From an uncultured Clostridia bacterium (lineage in GTDB: Bacteria; Bacillota; Clostridia; TANB77; CAG-508): a stretch of 64,000 bases of DNA. The stretch is taken from positions 115,981 to 179,980 of the forward strand of contig CANQPY010000001.1 in the NCBI GenBank assembly GCA_947625835.1, given 5' to 3'. Positions 10,115 to 51,605 of the stretch are shown in pieces (positions within the stretch are counted from its first letter, which is position 1; every line of letters starts with the position of its first letter). The translations under genes were made by a program, and so were the position numbers. The notes under the pieces were generated by a model. It did no database searches, was not told where the DNA came from, and worked only from the letters and a program-made list of their open reading frames with translations.

Positions 10115-10300
10115 ATGAATGAAGAGCTTACGGCTCAGCAAAAGCTGGATATTATTGTTAAATGCATTGATTATGGAGCACCTGCTCTTAAAGAAGACCT
10201 CATTAATTATCTTAACAATGTATTAAGCCTTGCTAATATATATCTCGCTAGCCAAGCAGTACCACCACAAACAGAAGAAACAGAAAATCAAATTAAGTGA
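10115..10300 (+). CDS. hypothetical small protein
   Basis: ORF 10097..10300; ATG 10115 is 11 nt after GGAGG; stop overlaps first 2 nt of tRNA-Ser. Confidence 0.65.
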   Translation: MNEELTAQQKLDIIVKCIDYGAPALKEDLINYLNNVLSLANIYLASQAVPPQTEETENQIK

Positions 10301-10388
10301 CAGGATGGCAGAGCTTGGCTGATTGCGCCAGTCTTGAAAACTGGATAGGGTAACACCTACGGGGGTTCAAATCCCTCTCCTGTCGCCA
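10299..10388 (+). tRNA. tRNA-Ser(UGA)
   Basis: Acceptor GACAGGA/TCCTGTC, stem CCAGT/ACTGG, loop CTTGAAA, long variable arm, T-arm GGGGG-TTCAAAT-CCCTC, CCA. Confidence 0.9.
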
Positions 10389-10415
10389 AAACATAAATAA
10401 AAATGGAGTATATAA

Positions 10416-10876
10416 ATGAATAATTTAACCAAGATTAATACTCCTGACCTCTCATTCACTGGGGGGGGGGCTCAAACTTTCTAGAGTGGCTTACTGACAA
10501 GATCTTCCCAGTTGGTACATATTTTTCAACCGAAAGTACTTTTAACCCTAATAGTACCTTTGCTGGAGAATGGAGCGAGTTACCTCAAGGCACCTTCCTC
10601 ATGGCGGTAGGAAGCGGCGGCACAGCAGGGCAGAAGGGCGGCAGCGCAGATGCGGTTGTGGTAAAACATAATCATACCATTGTTACGCTGTTGAACACTG
10701 GAAATGGTGTGCAGAGTGAAGATCTCACAATAATATATCCACAAGGATATAATAGTAGACAAATAAGCTACTATAATAAAAATCAGCCTGTTTATGCAGA
10801 AGATACAGGCGTTGACGGCACAGGCAAAAACCTTCCTCCTTATATTACAGCACACATTTGGAAAAGAACTAAATAA
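10416..10876 (+). CDS. fibre/baseplate-tip-type protein, interrupted at a G10 tract (out of frame in this sequence)
   Basis: GGAG + ATG 10416 gives MNNLTKINTPDLSFTGGG, then a stop at 10482. The frame after G10 (10461-70) continues into ORF 10601..10876: ..FPVGTYFSTESTFNPNSTFAGEWSELPQGTFLMAVGSGGTAGQKGGSADAVVVKHNHT. Confidence 0.65.
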
Positions 10877-10908
10877 AAACAAACAAATAAAAAGGAGCTT
10901 TATCTCTC

Positions 10909-10998
10909 ATGAAATGTAATATTTTTGTGGGGGGGGGGGCAAATAGACTAATTACCACCTCTCCTAAGAATAGAACCTCTCCAAAGGAGGTTTTATAA
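10909..10998 (+). promoter_or_regulatory. 29-codon upstream ORF with G11 tract, ending 1 nt before the fibre start codon
   Basis: AGGAG 10893-97, ATG 10909, G11 10929-39, TAA 10996-98. Anti-SD TCTCC 10978-82 can pair with GGAGG 10986-90. Confidence 0.6.
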
Positions 10999-10999
10999 T

Positions 11000-11930
11000 A
11001 TGGCAAATAATAATGCAATTCGATTCTTAAGAGGGGATAGTTCAAAGAAGAGTGCAGATATTACCCTACTTGCTGGGCAACCCTTCTATGAAACCAACAC
11101 TAATAAATTGTATGTTGGAGATGGTAAAACAGCGTTGAATAAATTATCATCAATAACTAGCAATGTGGAAAATAATATTAACACTTTAAATAATAGAGTT
11201 TCTAATCTAGATCCTTATAAATATTTTTGGCAAGGTTTGTTTTCTAAAAGACTAGCTGTAAGAGTAGGTGACAGATCATTTATTACAATAAACGAGTGTG
11301 CATTTCCGGCTTTATGCGTGGATACTTATGAGTCCTCCGGAAATATAAACAGCGTATGGCAAGTCAGTTACATCGTTGAAAAAAAAAGAGTTACTATTAA
11401 TTTCTCACCCTACATGGGGACAAACTAATTCGAATAAATGGGGAACTACAGTTATATATAATTACTTAAATAATGATATTTATAGCCTTCTTCCTACATA
11501 CCTTCAAAGTTGTATAGTCCCTGTAGATAAATCCATGGGAACTTACACTACAAGGCCGTCAGGTAGTACTTATTATGACATTGGTGCTTCATCTAGACTT
11601 TGGATTCCTTCAGCACAAGAGATTTGGGGGCCAAGTGTAAATTGGTTAAATGTTGATAGGAGAGGTATATCTGTAGATGGTGGTTCGACCCAGTTTGAGT
11701 ATTATAAACAATTGTTAGGGGATAATGCAAACCCTCAAGATTCCAAGGTAGCAGCTATGCTAGCTCCTACTATAAAAATATGGTTGAGAAATTATTCTGG
11801 GCCATATAATGAGGGCTTTTATCCAAGGGGTTGCTTATTAGACACTTCTGGGTTTTTAGACAATGGTGTGGACTATAGTCAGAAAAATTCCTTAGTTTTT
11901 TGTTTTGTTTTGGGCCAATTAAGTAATTAA
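11000..11930 (+). CDS. tail-fibre-like protein (HylP/Mtd N-terminal-type motif), split by an A9 tract
   Basis: ORFs 11000..11428 and 11376..11930 overlap at A9 (11379-87). Joined, they align along the full length of paralogue 15507..16298 (WQVSY..TWG..VPVDKSMGTY..LWIPSAQEIWG). Confidence 0.7.
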
Positions 11931-11976
11931 CAAATTTGATTAAACATTTCTTCCTAAAGGAACCGACTAAAAATAG

Positions 11977-12005
11977 TTGATTCCTTTCTTGTTGTTTATT
12001 ACAAT
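11977..12005 (+). promoter_or_regulatory. early promoter cassette (TTGATT-17-TACAAT)
   Basis: AAAATAG-TTGATT..TACAAT upstream of 12032. Confidence 0.7.
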
Positions 12006-12031
12006 AAAAGTAAGAAGGGGAAATATTTTAT

Positions 12032-12739
12032 ATGGGTAAGATAACCTTAACAAGCGATGAAATCAACCACCTGAAAGAAACTGCAAAGATTCTAATCAAC
12101 ATTTCTACAAATGATGAATCTTCTCTTGCCGATCTTCATTGCAATATGGATGAGCATATGGACTATTCCAACAGCATATTTAAGAAAATAGCTGATGATT
12201 ATGACCATTACTCCGATGCATTTGCTGATATTGGGAAAATTATTCAGGTAATTGCTGAAGAAACATCAGATGAAGAGAAAGCACCTTCTACACCTCAAGC
12301 AAAAAGGAAAATTGGATTAAAAGAACTTGAAGGGGATCATATTTTATCAGGTGTTGAACTTGGCCAGGCAATGCATAAACGGGATGGTTGGCCTGAAAAA
12401 GATTATTGTAACTATGTCAAGTTCACAATTGATAATATCCATTATAGAGTATTTGAAGACCCTAGTGATGGTTATCGTAGTTATTGTGAAGATCTTGAGA
12501 TTGTAGATGAACCCTGTAATACCAGACTTCCTGATATTGAAGTTGAAATAAAATATATTAGCGTTAAACATCTTGGCGACAGTGACTTTTGGGCTGAAGA
12601 TTGCGATGTTATCCAATTTATTGATAAAGCCAATCATAAGTTGGTCCTTGAAGTGGGTACTGAAAATGTTGGTGACTGGTATCCCAGTTGCGTATTCCAT
12701 TATTATCCCGAGAATATGTCTTGTAACGAAGGGCGCTAA
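12032..12739 (+). CDS. hypothetical protein
   Basis: ORF track; AAGGGGAAA RBS. Confidence 0.8.
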   Translation: MGKITLTSDEINHLKETAKILINISTNDESSLADLHCNMDEHMDYSNSIFKKIADDYDHYSDAFADIGKIIQVIAEETSDEEKAPSTPQAKRKIGLKELEGDHILSGVELGQAMHKRDGWPEKDYCNYVKFTIDNIHYRVFEDPSDGYRSYCEDLEIVDEPCNTRLPDIEVEIKYISVKHLGDSDFWAEDCDVIQFIDKANHKLVLEVGTENVGDWYPSCVFHYYPENMSCNEGR

Positions 12740-12758
12740 ATTAGTTGGAGAATTTTTT

Positions 12759-12986
12759 ATGTTAATTGCAATTATATTATTAATCCCTATTGTTTTTATG
12801 GCAATTGGAATTTTTATATTTTTATTTCCAAAGAAAAAATCAGATAAAGGCCCTAAAATTACAGATTTGTTCTATGCTGAAACAAAGGATAGTTGTAGAA
12901 CTGTCACTGAAATGTACACCATTATAGAAGATATCAAAAAGAATGGTGGTGAATATCTTAAAAATAAGAAAAAGGAAGAGAAATAA
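12759..12986 (+). CDS. small membrane protein
   Basis: ORF 12573..12986 trimmed to ATG 12759 after GGAG; N-terminal MLIAIILLIPIVFMAIGIFIFLF. Confidence 0.7.
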   Translation: MLIAIILLIPIVFMAIGIFIFLFPKKKSDKGPKITDLFYAETKDSCRTVTEMYTIIEDIKKNGGEYLKNKKKEEK

Positions 12987-12993
12987 AATCCAT

Positions 12994-13386
12994 ATGCAAG
13001 CTTTTATTTTGGAAAGAATAACCAATGATTATAATCTAGAAACTAAACTAATTTCTAACCCTGCTATGGCTGCAATAGAATTTGCGAAATGGATAAAGCA
13101 AATGCCTAAAGAGCAAGACAGGCAAGTAGCTTTTAGAGATGCAAATATGACTGTTGCCTATGTAGTAACACCCCATATGCCTACACCTTTATGGGCACTA
13201 ATAAAAATTCCATCAGGGAATACGCCAACAGTGGAGTTTTATGCAAGAGAAACAGAAAAATCATGGCGTAAGAAAATCTTAGAAGATTTAAAGTCAAGTA
13301 CAGTTATGGGGGGTATAAAAGCGGCATGTTTCTTAAACATGCAAACCCTAGTGATTGCAGAAAATTTTAATAAAGAAGGGGTGTGA
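12994..13386 (+). CDS. hypothetical protein
   Basis: ORF 12943..13386 trimmed to first ATG after previous stop. Confidence 0.65.
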   Translation: MQAFILERITNDYNLETKLISNPAMAAIEFAKWIKQMPKEQDRQVAFRDANMTVAYVVTPHMPTPLWALIKIPSGNTPTVEFYARETEKSWRKKILEDLKSSTVMGGIKAACFLNMQTLVIAENFNKEGV

Positions 13387-13392
13387 ATTACC

Positions 13393-13620
13393 ATGTACTG
13401 GCTGATATTTTTATTTTCAGGAATTGTTTTACTAATAGGTGCCATAGGAATTGCCTATTGTGAAGCGGCTGTTCATGACTCTGACAGCAAAAAATTTGTT
13501 CAATCTCTACGTAAAGAAAAAGTAGAAAAAGACGCTGAAGAGGTCATTAAGGAAGCCTTAAATAAACTTGAGGAAGAGGGATTTGAAAATTTTGATGTTT
13601 ATAAGCACAAATTCAAATAA
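13393..13620 (+). CDS. small membrane-anchored protein
   Basis: ORF track; N-terminal hydrophobic segment. Confidence 0.75.
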   Translation: MYWLIFLFSGIVLLIGAIGIAYCEAAVHDSDSKKFVQSLRKEKVEKDAEEVIKEALNKLEEEGFENFDVYKHKFK

Positions 13621-13627
13621 TTTTTAG

Positions 13628-13656
13628 TTGATTCTTTTTCCATTTTCATTTATAAT
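13628..13656 (+). promoter_or_regulatory. early promoter cassette (TTGATT-17-TATAAT)
   Basis: TTTTTAG-TTGATT..TATAAT..AAAAAGTGAGGTA. Confidence 0.75.
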
Positions 13657-13687
13657 AACAGAGAAGAAAAAAGTGAGGTAGTTGAAA

Positions 13688-13966
13688 ATGACCAAGAAGG
13701 AAATCTTTGAAAGTTGCGTGGCTAAGGAAGACAGAGAAGATCTAATCAATCTTTGCAAGATGTTTCTTAAGCATTACTATAAGGCAGAAAATAATAATTA
13801 CCACATGCAGCTTAGAGATCTCCTTAAGCGTACAATTCAACAACTTGCTTGGAAAAATGGGTTGAACGTTACATTCAATAATAACTATCCTGACAAAGTT
13901 AGATTTTTTAATTACAGCGCTGAGTTTAGAGTAGACGCCCTTGTAGGGAATATTATTGAGGAATAA
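13688..13966 (+). CDS. hypothetical protein
   Basis: ORF 13682..13966; ATG 13688 after GTGAGGTA. Confidence 0.75.
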   Translation: MTKKEIFESCVAKEDREDLINLCKMFLKHYYKAENNNYHMQLRDLLKRTIQQLAWKNGLNVTFNNNYPDKVRFFNYSAEFRVDALVGNIIEE

Positions 13967-14115
13967 AAGTGGGGTGTAAAAATATGTTTACGAATAAAGA
14001 GTTTACATGGGCAGATTTAGCGTTCATTTATACTACTGACCTTTTTGAAACAATTTTTGTTTCACAATAAACTACATAGTGCGCTTTCTGGTAAGAAAAA
14101 TTGAGCTAAATTCAG

Positions 14116-14571
14116 ATGAGGTGGAATGTGAATAAAATCAAATTTGCAGTCCTTGATATTAAAGAGGGGCTTAAAGTAGTTGAGGTTGAAGATATAAAAT
14201 ATTCAACATTATGTTCTTACCTCCATGAAGATTATCTTGACCATGAGCATCCTACAAATATTAGGGGTGTATGGATGATTGAAGATGATGCTTTTGAATA
14301 CGCTCAAAAGGATCAGAATATCAATCAAGATTATGTTAATAATTACAGTCTTCCATTTTTCAAAGATATGTCAGGTACTATGGGAACTTGTGTCTTATTT
14401 AGGCCTGGTAAAACATTTGGTAAAGAAGGCAATTTTGACGACATTATTTCCCTTACAGAGAAAGATATAAAAACTATTGAAGCAAAAGTTAACGAGATTA
14501 AACATTTTGAGGATCTAGCACAGGAGTTAGCACATGAGATTGAAGTTAATAAAGGAAGAGTTGTTGCTTGA
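14116..14571 (+). CDS. hypothetical protein
   Basis: ORF track; GTG 14128 after GAGGTGG is an alternative start. Confidence 0.7.
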   Translation: MRWNVNKIKFAVLDIKEGLKVVEVEDIKYSTLCSYLHEDYLDHEHPTNIRGVWMIEDDAFEYAQKDQNINQDYVNNYSLPFFKDMSGTMGTCVLFRPGKTFGKEGNFDDIISLTEKDIKTIEAKVNEIKHFEDLAQELAHEIEVNKGRVVA

Positions 14572-15076
14572 AGCCACTTGGAGAAATCAAGCAAACCTTC
14601 AAAGACACTTTGAAAAGCAAGTGTTGAAAGATGGGGAAAAATTCAATCCAGATGATCCTAAATTTGCTTCAACCATGACCATTGATGATTATAAACAAGA
14701 AGCAGAGAAATTATCAACAGCAAAAGCTGATAAATCTGTTTATAAAATATATGAGCAAGATATTGAAGGTAATAAATATGAGGTTCCTAAAAGATCTCCA
14801 AACCTTGTTTCTGATATAATTGGATGGGAATTACTCCCTCAACCTGGAAGAGAAGGAAGAATGCCTAGAAAAATTAAGATTTCCAAATATATCAATCCTA
14901 AATTCTTCCCTCCCGAAGCCAAAGGTACTGGTAGGTATAGAGCAGCTGTATTTTATGTAGATGAACCTTCAGAAGACAATATTATTAGTTTTTTTATTAT
15001 CAGAGATGATAAGTTCAAAAATCTTTTCAAATATCAATGGAAAGATGAGTTGCCTGAAAATCAAAATAAAGAATAA
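14534..15076 (+). CDS. hypothetical protein
   Basis: ORF track; overlaps previous gene by 38 nt, start uncertain. Confidence 0.6.
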   Translation: MRLKLIKEELLLEATWRNQANLQRHFEKQVLKDGEKFNPDDPKFASTMTIDDYKQEAEKLSTAKADKSVYKIYEQDIEGNKYEVPKRSPNLVSDIIGWELLPQPGREGRMPRKIKISKYINPKFFPPEAKGTGRYRAAVFYVDEPSEDNIISFFIIRDDKFKNLFKYQWKDELPENQNKE

Positions 15077-15104
15077 AAAATAAATTTGTGAGGTAAATAA
15101 AAAA

Positions 15105-15374
15105 ATGGCAAAACATCAAGATCGTAAGAAACCTTCCCCTTCATTCAGTAATTTTTCTGATTCGAATCCTTTGCTCAGTTATTCATTTAAGCCTTATAGG
15201 ATTTCATGCAATGCTTATTCTACATCCAGAGTAACACTACCAGAAGCGGAAGAAATTGCACGTAAAATGCTCCAATGGTATTCTGAAGTTTGGATTGATA
15301 CTCCAAATGGAATGCACATTAATGTTGGAGATGGTACAGCAGTTGATTTTAATGAACTTGCAAAGGCTGTTTAA
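15105..15374 (+). CDS. hypothetical protein
   Basis: ORF track; GTGAGGTAAA RBS. Confidence 0.8.
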   Translation: MAKHQDRKKPSPSFSNFSDSNPLLSYSFKPYRISCNAYSTSRVTLPEAEEIARKMLQWYSEVWIDTPNGMHINVGDGTAVDFNELAKAV

Positions 15375-15419
15375 AAAGATAAAAAAAAAAATAAAATTAA
15401 AAAGGAGTTCTCTTCTCAT

Positions 15420-15506
15420 ATGAAAACATTTAGTATTTCACGGGGGGGGGGCAAACAGTTTAGTTAGTCTCACCTCTCTCGAGAACCTCTCAAGGGAGGT
15501 TTTTTA
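15420..15506 (+). promoter_or_regulatory. fibre-gene leader with G10 tract; homologue of 10909..10998, in the short-uORF register
   Basis: AGGAG 15403-07, ATG 15420, G10 15442-51. The present frame stops at TAG 15465-67. With one more G the frame would run to a TAA overlapping ATG 15507 (TAATG). Confidence 0.6.
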
Positions 15507-16298
15507 ATGGCTGGAAATAATGGAATTAAATTTCTTAGGGGCACTTCAAGCTTAAGGCGAAGTAGCACTGCTAAGCTATTATATGGTCAACCTTTCTATG
15601 AAGCTGACACAAATCTATTATATATAGGTGGAAAAGATGGTACCACATTAAATGGAGCGACCCCAATAGGGCATAGCATTCAATACTATTGGGATTGCAT
15701 AAACTGGGCATGGGTAAGGGAAGGAGATTGTGCTTTCATAGAATTACTTAATGGAAATATTGTACCTGCACGTTGTGTTAACATTGATAATCAATATAAT
15801 ATTACATGGCAGGTCAATTATCCTTCTGTATTCGACATGGGGTACTCTTTAACCTGGGGTGAGACAACCTTATTTAATCAATTAAATACCACTATTATTA
15901 ATTTATTTCCTAGTACTCTTGCATTTAATATTGTACCTGTAGTTAAATCTTCAGGTACCTACAGCAATACATCTGATCCTGGTACTGAAAGCAAGCTTTG
16001 GATACCTTCAGCTGAAGAGATTTTTGGTCAGAATGGAATTTTTCCATCTGGTATGTCCCGAGATAGTGGGTCAGTTCAGTTTGGATACTATAGAGAATTA
16101 CTAGGAAGTAATAGAAGTGCAACAGGGTATAACCCAGAATTGAGAAGTGTATCTAATTGTTGGTTAAGAAATAGATATCTCACATATAATTCGCAATGGT
16201 TTGTGTTAAAGAATAATGGTGATGTAGAGTATACCTCCGTGGGAGCGTTTAATCAACAAAGCGCGATTTTTTGCTTTACAATGAAGATAAAAAATTAG
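15507..16298 (+). CDS. tail-fibre-like protein (HylP/Mtd N-terminal-type motif)
   Basis: ORF track; IKFLRGTSS..LLYGQPFYEADTNLLYIGGKDGTTL; C-terminal LWIPSAEEIFG..VQFGYYRELLG..CWLRN. Confidence 0.85.
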   Translation: MAGNNGIKFLRGTSSLRRSSTAKLLYGQPFYEADTNLLYIGGKDGTTLNGATPIGHSIQYYWDCINWAWVREGDCAFIELLNGNIVPARCVNIDNQYNITWQVNYPSVFDMGYSLTWGETTLFNQLNTTIINLFPSTLAFNIVPVVKSSGTYSNTSDPGTESKLWIPSAEEIFGQNGIFPSGMSRDSGSVQFGYYRELLGSNRSATGYNPELRSVSNCWLRNRYLTYNSQWFVLKNNGDVEYTSVGAFNQQSAIFCFTMKIKN

Positions 16299-16327
16299 TT
16301 GATATTTTCTTTAAGTTACATTATAAT
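16299..16327 (+). promoter_or_regulatory. early promoter cassette (TTGATA-17-TATAAT)
   Basis: AAAATTAG-TTGATA..TATAAT. Confidence 0.7.
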
Positions 16328-16333
16328 ATATAT

Positions 16334-16425
16334 GTAGATAGGAAGGAACGACGCAAGGTTGGGCTTTTCTGTCTGGACTAAAAAAGCATTTCACAGTGTT
16401 GCTTTGAAGAAATGCAATAACAACA
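16334..16425 (+). ncRNA. conserved ~95-nt leader/sRNA-like segment, copy 1
   Basis: GTAGATAGGAAGG..AAAAGCATTTCACAGTGTTGCTTTGAAGAA is near-identical to 17379-17470; hairpin AAAGCA-11 nt-TGCTTT. Confidence 0.45.
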
Positions 16426-16606
16426 GTGAGGCAAAAAATATGAAAAGATATTGTATTGATTTTCTCGGTGAATAGAAGAGATAACTAAACATTAAAAGGA
16501 TGGAATATGTTTAATAAATGAGAGGAAATTTAATTATATTTCTCCAAATAATAGATGTAAGTTTGAATTATCCTGGGAGAATGGTACAGGGTGGTATCAA
16601 GTAGAA

Positions 16607-21585: not shown

Positions 21586-21629
21586 ATGCTAAATTATCCG
21601 AACATACATAGAAAAGGATAATTTAGCAT
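21586..21629 (+). promoter_or_regulatory. 14-bp hairpin pairing the TGCTAAATTA motif with the RBS and start codon of the homing endonuclease gene
   Basis: ATGCTAAATTATCC (21586-99) is the exact reverse complement of GGATAATTTAGCAT (21616-29); ATG is at 21628. Confidence 0.6.
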
Positions 21630-35255: not shown

Positions 35256-36488
35256 ATGAAGCTTTCAAATAACATCAAAAAGATTTTTAAGCTTTTCCAA
35301 CAATTTAATAAGCAAATCTACCTTGTTGGTGGTTGTGTAAGAGATATTGTAATGGGGAATACTCCTCATGATTATGATTTTACTACAAATGCAACTCCTG
35401 ATGAAATGAAAGAGATTGCTAAAAGTGCAAATATTGAAATTATTCCTACTGGCGAAAAATATGGTACTCTTACTTTTCATATTGATAATGAATTTTATGA
35501 GATCACAACATTCAGATCCGATGGAAATTATAGTGATGGAAGAAGACCAGATGAAGTTGTTTTTTCTAAAGAGTTGAGGGATGATCTTTGTAGAAGAGAT
35601 TTTACTTTTAATTCCATGTGTTTTTCCTTTGATGAGAAAAATAATGGGGTTAAGTTAATTGATATCTATAATGGTAGGAAAGACATTGAAAGTGGGGTTG
35701 TAAATACCATTGGTAAAGCAGAGGATAGATTTAATGAAGATGCATTGAGAATTCTTAGAGCAATTAGATTTGCTTATAAATTTGGGTTTAATCTTTCCTT
35801 AGATATTAGAAGAGCAATTTCCAAGCAGGTAAATCTTCTTAATAATGTTTCTATGGAAAGGATTAGAGAGGAAATTTTCAAGATCCTAGAATACTATAAG
35901 CCCAGTGAAATCAATGATAAATCATTGCAAATTGTTCTTAATAAGATTTTGGGTGGTTCTAATATTGATTTTATAGATGAATTTGGTGAAAATATCCTTA
36001 TTGAAACTAGATTGCTTTATGTTTTAAATTTTAAATTGAATAGAGAAGAAATTAATAATAAGTTGGTTGAATTGAAATGCAGTAATAAATTTATTAAAGA
36101 TTCTCTTACAATTTATGACTGTTTTAAATGCCTTGAATATTATAAAAAACAAGAGGATTTGAGATTTGCCTTTAAGAAATGTTTGAATAGGTGTAATAAA
36201 GATTTTAATCTTTTTACCCAGTCCCTTATTTTGTTTATTAATAATAATATTGAATTTCTCTTTGATTATGAAGATCTTATTAGATTGGGCCAAACCATTT
36301 TGGAAAATAATGAACCAATCACCCTTGCAGATCTTGTAATTAATGGGGATGACCTTAATGGTTGGGGGATTAAAGGAAAGAAATGTGGGGAATTGCTTGA
36401 GACAATCCAGGAAAAAGTTTGGTTGGATCCTGCATTTAATAGTAAAGAAACAATTAAAGAATTTGTTAAGGTTAAAGCTACCTGTTAA
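35256..36488 (+). CDS. cca: tRNA nucleotidyltransferase (CCA-adding enzyme)
   Basis: LVGGCVRDIVMGNTPHDYDFTT, ..GTLTF..EITTFR, RRDFTFNS, ALRILRAIRFA. Confidence 0.9.
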   Translation: MKLSNNIKKIFKLFQQFNKQIYLVGGCVRDIVMGNTPHDYDFTTNATPDEMKEIAKSANIEIIPTGEKYGTLTFHIDNEFYEITTFRSDGNYSDGRRPDEVVFSKELRDDLCRRDFTFNSMCFSFDEKNNGVKLIDIYNGRKDIESGVVNTIGKAEDRFNEDALRILRAIRFAYKFGFNLSLDIRRAISKQVNLLNNVSMERIREEIFKILEYYKPSEINDKSLQIVLNKILGGSNIDFIDEFGENILIETRLLYVLNFKLNREEINNKLVELKCSNKFIKDSLTIYDCFKCLEYYKKQEDLRFAFKKCLNRCNKDFNLFTQSLILFINNNIEFLFDYEDLIRLGQTILENNEPITLADLVINGDDLNGWGIKGKKCGELLETIQEKVWLDPAFNSKETIKEFVKVKATC

Positions 36489-50924: not shown

Positions 50925-51605
50925 ATGTCTTATTATGATGTTTATATAGATGGAAAACCTTATAGGCTGTATATGGGGGGGGGGGCATATGATGCTTTCC
51001 TAAAAGATACAGGAGATGGAAAATTAACAATAGCCGTAGCAAAGTTATCAGTAAGTTATGATTCAACTACAAACATGGTAAATTGCACAATAGAAGATTT
51101 AAGTGAAACAGGAAAAAGAATAAAAGATCAATTAAGGTTAGAATTTGAATATAAGCATGGAGAACCGCTTTATAGAAATTATAGTGAGACTGTAAGTAGT
51201 TCTTTGCTGGATTATAGCAGACCTTATAATCCTGATAATGGTCACTATCAAGGAAGACATGCAATTATAGATACTAATAGAGTATGGTGCGCTTCTCCTT
51301 TTTTAACAAAAAATCTTGCAGATGATTTTGGTTCTAATAACTCACCCAGTTCTAATAGGACACTATCTAAAAATAATCCTCCATTAGATATAGGAGTAAC
51401 TGTTAGTTATAATTTATCTGATCTTTTTTCTGGAGAACCTAATGTACTAAATGGGAATCCACGCAGTGCTGAAAATGGGTTTTATACTTATGGAGATTAT
51501 GATTATTATTTAGATACGAGATTTTATATTCGTAATAGGCGAACGGATAGATTTCTTAAAACTATTTCTCCAGTTTTACGTTTGACTTATAAAAAATTAA
51601 ATTAA
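50925..51605 (+). CDS. hypothetical virion protein with an in-frame G11 tract; paralogue of 51694..52398
   Basis: MSYYDVYIDGKPYRLYMGGGAYD.. versus MSYYNIYIGDKPYQLYIEDIAYD..; G11 at 50975-85. Confidence 0.8.
   Translation: MSYYDVYIDGKPYRLYMGGGAYDAFLKDTGDGKLTIAVAKLSVSYDSTTNMVNCTIEDLSETGKRIKDQLRLEFEYKHGEPLYRNYSETVSSSLLDYSRPYNPDNGHYQGRHAIIDTNRVWCASPFLTKNLADDFGSNNSPSSNRTLSKNNPPLDIGVTVSYNLSDLFSGEPNVLNGNPRSAENGFYTYGDYDYYLDTRFYIRNRRTDRFLKTISPVLRLTYKKLN

Follow-up and report, generated by a model that had tools for sequence, protein, structure and literature searches.

A poly-G leader reading frame as a candidate switch of a tail-fibre-like gene in an uncultivated phage

In Streptococcus gallolyticus, the pil1 locus carries a repeat within a leader peptide. 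Depending on the frame, translation ends ahead of a hairpin and yields a short peptide (low expression), or continues into the hairpin or past it and yields a longer one (high expression), the ribosome being the effector (Danne et al. 2014, PMC3894217). The repeat consists of about 22 GCAGA pentamers, the hairpin is a terminator, and the mechanism was proven experimentally (PMC3894217). Among phages, the Campylobacter Fletchervirus group is described as having hypermutable polyG tracts in receptor-binding genes (Sorensen et al. 2021, Cell Rep 35:109214, as cited in PMC10579305 and PMC10877375). A further G-repeat, of variable length, lies in the 5' untranslated region (UTR) of the Helicobacter pylori gene tlpB, where the small RNA (sRNA) RepG is described as pairing with it (PMC8295292; mentioned in PMC12721329). 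Here we analyse a 64,000-nt stretch of phage DNA (the window), in which a run of ten G (G10) lies in a leader at 15403-15507, directly ahead of a tail-fibre-like gene at 15507-16298. As in pil1, the repeat sits in a short leader open reading frame (ORF) with its own Shine-Dalgarno sequence (SD) and start codon, and the frame moves the stop from before to beyond a hairpin. The leader is probably a mutational on/off switch that acts via its leader peptide and not via the fibre gene itself.

The window comes from a contig of 198,913 bp (CANQPY010000001.1) and is phage DNA: all its genes are on one strand, its G+C content is about 34%, and it holds 24 tRNA genes. The phage has a genome of about 200 kb and is uncultivated; searching the literature with the sample accessions gave no result. 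The analysis was computational throughout, and the contigs labelled L001-L024 are the assemblies that were compared.

Layout and reading frames of the leader

The leader is about 105 nt long and lies on the plus strand, as do all features described below for which a strand is given. It begins with AGGAG (15403-15407), the SD of the upstream ORF (uORF), here SD1, which stands 12 nt ahead of the uORF start codon ATG (15420-15422). The spacer that follows SD1, TTCTCTTCTC (Y1, 15408-15417), is made of pyrimidines only. The poly-G tract (15442-15451) falls in uORF codons 8-11. Downstream of it, the anti-SD element CACCTCTCTC (15471-15480) and two anti-SD copies CCTCTC (15473-15478 and 15486-15491) precede the SD of the fibre gene (SD2, GGGAGG, 15494-15499) and a run of six T (T6, 15500-15505). 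A TAA triplet (15505-15507) overlaps the fibre ATG (15507-15509) as TAATG. An earlier note on this DNA had listed these parts other than Y1 and T6, together with the ORF 15507-16298, and had likened the arrangement over 15403-15509 to that of a paralogous leader in the window (locus 1); we found every part in its place and the same architecture at both loci. Two hairpins are predicted. Hairpin A (15407-15452) would pair Y1 and the region of the uORF start codon (AUG1) with uORF codons 5-7 and the poly-G, Y1 being the partner of the poly-G in the outer stem. Hairpin B (15456-15513) would have a core in which ACCTCTCT (15472-15479) pairs with AGGGAGGT (15493-15500), and an outer stem reaching to the fibre AUG; together with SD2 and T6 it has a terminator-like appearance.

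In a genome of about 34% G+C, a G10 run is far above the composition expectation. The window contains four poly-G tracts of G10-G11, all on the plus strand, two of them in leaders and two inside ORFs, and G8 windows number 14 against 0.42 expected. A search of the window with a leader profile returned two copies only. A run of eleven A (15381-15391) lies between the stop of the upstream gene and SD1; it is invariant in all assemblies and provides a control for homopolymer errors, and similar A-rich stretches also stand ahead of other leaders.

Because the tract lies within uORF codons 8-11, behind a dedicated SD and ATG, its length sets the reading frame of the uORF. In the current G10 register, conceptual translation of the uORF (15420-15467) gives MKTFSISRGGGKQFS followed by TAG (15465-15467), the short uORF that had been claimed; G7 and G13 lead to the same stop. 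The companion claim, that one more G would give the long frame, was wrong: G11 yields MKTFSISRGGGQTV and stops at TAG 15461-15463, as does G8. The long peptide, which ends in GANSLVSLTSLENLSREVF at the TAATG, requires G9 or G12, that is, one G less or two G more. The short registers thus stop at 15461-15467, while the long register stops at 15505-15507, past the core of hairpin B (15472-15500), and it is the only one to reach the stop-start overlap. The tract is outside the fibre coding sequence, as all three frames are closed between it and ATG 15507. A fusion of uORF and fibre, or a programmed frameshift, was rejected because of these stops and because the fibre N-terminus is conserved in homologues that have no leader.

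We consider it fairly probable that the leader 15403-15507 is a leader-peptide contingency switch for the downstream fibre gene. Replication slippage, seen as altered tract lengths at sister tracts, would also change the length of tract 15442-15451, and tract length determines the uORF frame. In two of the registers, including the present G10, the ribosome would stop 3-5 codons past the tract, before hairpin B or just touching it; SD2 would remain sequestered and the fibre gene would be off or low. In the G9/G12 register, the ribosome would traverse hairpin B and stop at the TAA that overlaps the fibre ATG. It would thereby melt hairpin B and then reinitiate, or hand over, at AUG 15507, and the fibre would be made. 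Ribosome transit may also block the formation of a terminator by hairpin B and T6. The locus at 15507 is accordingly predicted to be OFF or low at G10, one deletion away from ON. SD motifs precede 36 of the 46 window genes, which makes SD-based control plausible in the host of this phage.

The gene at 15507-16298 encodes 263 aa, and its product is fibre-like or receptor-binding protein (RBP)-like as judged from profile matches and a structure model. An N-terminus of the Mtd_N/HylP type and a DUF6273-like C-terminal domain are indicated. In Pfam, DUF6273 scored 21 bits on the 263-aa fibre, below the cutoff of 23.5, and Mtd_N scored 23.2 bits, below the cutoff of 26.3, in the paralogue only. The AlphaFold2 model of the 263-aa fibre has a predicted local distance difference test score (pLDDT) of 74. 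In BFVD, the body of the model matches DUF6273, tail-fibre (tail-collar) and RBP proteins of gut phages (E 2.5e-10 to 1e-5), and in the PDB its first ~50 residues resemble the N-terminus of HylP and Mtd (E 0.05-0.5). The residues MAGNN form a conserved fibre start, which is found in leaderless homologues too. Searches of the GenBank phages in INPHARED by blastn and tblastn with the locus, the fibre and a structural protein gave no match, and PHROGs and Pfam were almost uninformative on the large virion genes.

Related leaders and their predicted folds

Fibre homologues are rare, and their contigs supplied five further leaders: the L003 leader (G9, identical in six contigs), L012a (G10), L012b (G10), L015a (G12) and L015b (G11). 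Together with the two of the window this makes a set of seven. L012a is the orthologue of locus 1 in a strain that is 94-97% identical over the region, so that six leaders are independent; L012b occupies, in this second strain, the position of the 15403-15507 locus. Pairwise identity is only 28-45% for the fibres behind the leaders and about 70% for the leaders themselves. All seven leaders have GGAG 10-12 nt ahead of the uORF ATG, then 6-8 codons, then G9-G12. The spacer is purely pyrimidine in six of them and contains one A in the locus-1 type. In each leader both off-frames are closed 1-5 codons past the tract, whereas the third frame is open for 17-20 codons, up to a TAA located -1 to +2 nt from the fibre ATG. 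In the frame defined by this TAA, none of 22 stop triplets found after the tract in the six independent leaders occurs. In shuffled sequences, the full frame pattern (TAA frame open, other two closed within ~6 codons) arises with p ~0.03-0.04 per leader; since the leaders share ancestry, the product of these values would overstate the significance.

The core idea of the earlier note, a poly-G leader whose register decides whether a uORF extends to the fibre start, therefore receives strong comparative support from six diverged leaders that preserve the long frame; what did not survive is its register arithmetic and its argument from the peptide. The note had taken the likeness of the long-frame peptide to that of locus 1 as a sign that this frame is conserved. 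The frame is indeed preserved across leaders, but the likeness is largely dictated by SD and anti-SD nucleotides and is no proof of a conserved peptide. We rejected a conserved leader peptide altogether: the uORF N-termini are unrelated (MKCNIFV, MKTFSISR, MIRNHYM, MKFNQTS, MKLFKFY, MNKNIRFYE), and where the C-termini are alike they overlie the SD and anti-SD nucleotides.

More distant fibre homologues (L010, L011 and L013) are without a leader and have the same MAGNN start behind an ordinary SD. Given these homologues, the leader is, as far as the comparison of sequences goes, an add-on to the fibre gene. A decayed leader was seen in L013 (1681-1740) and also in L014 (1114-1169), with SD, pyrimidine spacer, ATG and an interrupted tract, GGGAGGAGGG; a terminator-like hairpin comes next and no fibre gene stands behind it. 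At the site corresponding to window 15375-16298, the second strain (L012/L019, 5243-6694) carries one more Gp10_C gene, which holds a G9/G10 tract itself. Also at this site, flanked by DNA of 94-97% identity, is a different leader and fibre cassette (fibre 35%, leader 71% identical); leader and fibre appear to be exchanged between strains as one unit. L002, a 1-kb Logan contig, starts with C8 where its orthologue L015b has G11; such tracts fragment assemblies, and a poly-C variant was rejected in favour of a probable contig-end artefact at the homopolymer. Scans of IMG/VR, JGI metagenomes and GTDB genomes for relatives or leader-like patterns found none; the single JGI match, L009, was rejected as a chance match in DNA of 48% G+C with no fibre.

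Hairpins A and B are both predicted in all seven leaders. Hairpin A has a folding energy of -14 to -20 kcal/mol (z -3.0 to -4.1), and its helix 1, formed by the spacer and the poly-G, is 97% paired across leaders. As G pairs with C and U alike, this stem tolerates a changed tract length. Hairpin B, which buries SD2, has z values of -2.3 to -6.9. SD and anti-SD vary together from leader to leader (GGAGG/CCUCUCC, GGAAGGGGG/CCCCCUUCC, GGGAGGGG/CCUCUCCCC). In the hairpin alignment 92% of cells are paired, versus 50-70% in slid controls, and double changes occur at three pairs. In the predicted fold of the naked RNA, the probability that SD2 is unpaired is at most 0.04 for every tract length from G7 to G11. 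An action of tract length through RNA folding alone was therefore rejected, and this insensitivity points to the reading frame as the means by which the length would be sensed.

A different role for the tract, as a structural or regulatory RNA element whose uORF is not decoded, has to be set against these data. Here the hairpins would set mRNA stability or translation and be tuned by length, or the tract would be the target of a CU-rich sRNA, as with RepG and tlpB. The predicted pairing of the poly-G with a conserved pyrimidine spacer in all leaders fits such a role, as do the CU-rich stretches that also precede the in-ORF tracts, and control of this kind through a G-repeat and an sRNA is on record (PMC8295292; mentioned in PMC12721329). 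It leaves unexplained, however, the three-base periodicity of six diverged leaders, in which one frame stays open for 17-20 codons and the others close at once, and equally the conserved SD1 and ATG. With the predicted pairing of SD2 indifferent to G7-G11 and no Rfam match, we judge this role quite improbable. The Rfam 15 covariance search, which covered 10200-16500, returned only a tRNA and one sub-threshold chance match, and no family for the leader.

The folds bear also on pure transcription attenuation in the manner of pil1. According to this explanation, hairpin B and the T run form an intrinsic terminator, the long uORF holds the ribosome on the nascent hairpin, and both SD sequestration and stop-start coupling are incidental. 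Hairpin B is G+C-rich and followed directly by T6 (15500-15505), U-rich runs come after the hairpin in all leaders, a terminator scan called the paralogous hairpin at 10978-10990 terminator-like, and the mechanism is proven for pil1 (PMC3894217). The same scan did not call hairpin B with T6, however, and the U runs of other leaders are interrupted (UUAUUUAAU, UUCUUUAAU). A pure attenuator would, moreover, need neither a hairpin whose 3' arm is the fibre SD nor a long frame that ends -1 to +2 nt from the fibre ATG, and both are found in every leader. Attenuation as the sole mechanism agrees with the data but is in our view unlikely; attenuation as such is compatible with SD sequestration and coupling, and the two are not exclusive.

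Length variation at poly-G tracts and the genes concerned

Tract length was followed in same-strain assemblies from other samples (L016, L017 and L018; L001 is identical to the window contig) and in those of a second strain (L012, L019-L023). Between assemblies that are 99.6-100% identical, all indels fall at poly-G tracts. Over up to 14.5 kb, L016, L017 and L018 match the window at 100% identity except for one gap, in the tract at 10461-10470 (L0), which lies inside an ORF. The sole difference between L024 and the window over 4.5 kb is G10 in place of G11 in a second in-ORF tract (L3, 50975-50985), with 0 mismatches. Assemblies of about 40x coverage thus show zero substitutions over 4.5-14 kb and differ at poly-G only. 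In the second strain, too, all indels are at poly-G, and three in-ORF tracts (T1, T2 and T4) alternate between G9 and G10. For the locus-1-type leader the window strain shows G11, five contigs show G10 and L020 shows G9, so that all three registers occur naturally. As for other leaders, besides the G9 of L003 in its six contigs, L012b has G10 in three. Poly-A tracts (A8-A11) never differ among same-strain assemblies. Length variation, which had been expected as the sign of a switch, is hence present at sister tracts, including a leader of the locus-1 type, but tract 15442-15451 itself was constant at G10.

This constancy is what a mere mutational hotspot without regulatory role, or a sequencing or assembly artefact, would lead one to expect, the fibre then being made constitutively from its own SD. 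The low coverage of the second-strain contigs points the same way, and so does the Logan contig that breaks exactly at its tract. Such an explanation does not account for an architecture that is kept in leaders of ~70% identity ahead of fibres of 28-45% identity, nor for a fibre SD that is predicted to be sequestered in all leaders. The ~40x assemblies differ at poly-G only, the in-ORF changes toggle otherwise intact ORFs, and A8-A11 tracts are constant within a strain; we regard a hotspot or artefact as very unlikely.

Poly-G tracts upstream of genes classically act as promoter spacers, as in the phase variation of porA and opc in Neisseria and of the tpr genes in Treponema. In that case the G tract would separate a -35 from a -10 element and its length would set promoter strength. 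In our scan no sigma-70-like promoter spans the tract, phage-specific promoters being outside the reach of the scan, and by eye the hexamers on either side of it, TTTCAC ... TTTAGT, are a poor fit to the consensus. A promoter spacer would also leave the frame pattern and the conserved SD1 and ATG unexplained, and we find it hardly credible for this leader.

The paralogous leader, locus 1 (10893-10999), has SD1 at 10893-10897, the uORF ATG at 10909, G11 at 10929-10939 and TAA at 10996-10998, one base ahead of the fibre ATG at 11000. Its G11 is in the long register and the G10 of 15442-15451 in the short one, and the two loci do sit in opposite registers, as had been proposed. The locus-1 fibre gene (11000-11930) is split by a run of nine A (A9, 11379-11387) into two ORFs of 142 aa and 184 aa; the related strain, 94-97% identical over this region, has A8 and an intact gene of 309 aa. 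The A9 is constant in four same-strain assemblies; possible readings are a fixed frameshift, a second switch and transcriptional slippage at this site. Since the locus-1 fibre is broken, opposite registers do not mean that one fibre is on and the other off.

The two other tracts of the window lie inside genes. A Gp10_C-like baseplate or RBP gene (10416-10876) contains G10 at 10461-10470 and is OFF in the window; in L016, L017 and L018 the tract is G11, which restores an intact 153-aa Gp10_C protein (ON). An ORF of the structural module (50925-51605) contains G11 at 50975-50985 and is ON in the window; the G10 of L024 turns it OFF, Met51 being where the gene caller then places the start. The in-ORF tracts of Gp10_C paralogues (window 10440-10470; L012 100-133, 690-723 and 5290-5322) have a CCTCTC-type pyrimidine stretch 7-9 nt upstream, and the leader profile weakly matches the 5' ends of these paralogues (E 0.002-0.005). 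Gene-internal switch and uORF module may go back to a common origin, or may have in common a hairpin that pairs the G run.

Several observations weigh against the leader as a switch, or limit its form. Each of the three independent assemblies that span tract 15442-15451 (window/L001, L016 and L017) has G10 there. Leader tracts are less variable than in-ORF tracts: within strains, one of about 22 leader observations differed, while L0, T1, T2, T4 and L3 were each variable. The second-strain contigs have a coverage of only 7-9x, and some of their length calls could be homopolymer errors. A short register is found in five of the seven leaders. The only long-register leader of the window precedes the frameshifted fibre, so with the consensus genotype neither fibre would be made at more than a low level, except where slippage bypasses the A9. 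In the leader 15403-15507, the short-frame stops are just 4-9 nt from the arm of hairpin B; a ribosome there could partly open the hairpin, and the states may therefore be graded and not binary. The spacing of 10-12 nt between SD1 and ATG is rather long and AUG1 lies inside hairpin A, so that uORF translation could be inefficient. Column shuffles of the hairpin alignment match the observed values in 44-49 of 500 trials, because purine-rich and pyrimidine-rich arms pair in almost any arrangement. Formal covariation is thus weak and not significant, and the structural support consists of consistent predicted pairing and a few compensatory changes. Finally, the ON/OFF polarity is a prediction from sequence.

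Elsewhere in the window we noted the 24 tRNA genes (768-27679), a GIY-YIG/NUMOD homing-endonuclease-like gene (21628-22560), a tRNA nucleotidyltransferase (35256-36488) and a 989-aa ART-PolyVal protein (57719-60688).

Comparison with described switches

Phase variation is usually read from a tract in a promoter or in a coding sequence. Neither annotation catches a tract that sits in a leader ORF, and gene callers show an intact fibre and nothing on its state. Full-text literature searches found no case of uORF-based phase variation besides pil1, and a 2025 review of phase variation makes no mention of leader peptides, attenuation or translational coupling. Chances seem to us evenly balanced that the leader represents a portable riboregulatory cassette of phages and the first uORF-based phase-variation switch in a virus. 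In such a cassette the register of the uORF, together with translational coupling, would turn a heritable one-base change in length into switched expression of a receptor-binding gene that is itself unmodified, either on/off or in three graded states. If so, the cassette would let the phage bet-hedge its host range without a glycine run in the constrained N-terminus of the fibre, and it would travel with fibre alleles between strains. The leader module would then be one of several poly-G switches on candidate receptor-binding genes, the others lying inside coding sequences, and jointly they would give subpopulations of virions with different fibre sets. This group of phages looks like a multi-locus host-range bet-hedger, which is relevant to strain-level virome data and to the design of phage therapy.

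Should the mechanism hold, phages would use leader-peptide register switches to diversify their receptor-binding equipment, and the single bacterial precedent, pil1, would be extended to viruses and to homopolymers. The leader would be a compact, transferable cis part of ~105 nt that requires the ribosome alone. The state could be read from assemblies by a simple rule: ON would correspond to G9/G12 at 15442-15451 and to G8/G11/G14 at locus 1.

The phage leader differs from pil1 in several respects. Its repeat is a G homopolymer, whereas pil1 has pentamers in a bacterial host. The phage hairpin contains the target SD and the long frame ends on the target start codon, so that translational coupling is no less likely than anti-termination. 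The phage leader has a single long register out of three, whereas in pil1 out-of-frame repeat changes give the longer peptides. In classical translational coupling, hairpins sequester the SD and junctions are of the UAAUG or AUGA type; the leader peptides of ermC and pyrBI are examples. The phage leader shares with this class an upstream ORF that ends as TAATG at the downstream start, and a downstream SD buried in a predicted hairpin. There, however, coupling is constitutive or governed by ribosome stalling or by UTP-limited spacing of polymerase and ribosome, whereas in the phage leader a heritable length mutation would decide whether the ribosome arrives. With tlpB the phage leader shares a G homopolymer of variable length that lies ahead of a gene in its mRNA and pairs, here by prediction, with RNA rich in C and U; RepG, however, acts in trans as an sRNA and without a uORF, whereas the phage leader carries its C/U-rich partners in cis and has a frame pattern that speaks for decoding. 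With the Fletchervirus phages the window has in common several poly-G tracts tied to receptor-binding or tail genes; such tracts give, or here would give, phase-variable subpopulations of virions. The Fletchervirus tracts reportedly lie inside the coding sequence, and L0, L3 and the tracts of the Gp10_C paralogues are of this in-ORF kind. Tract 15442-15451 differs in lying outside the fibre gene, in a uORF, from which it would act indirectly. As read from its sequence, the locus joins two known ideas, the poly-G phase variation of phages and the leader peptide of the pil1 type, with a homopolymer, an SD-sequestering hairpin and a stop-start overlap.

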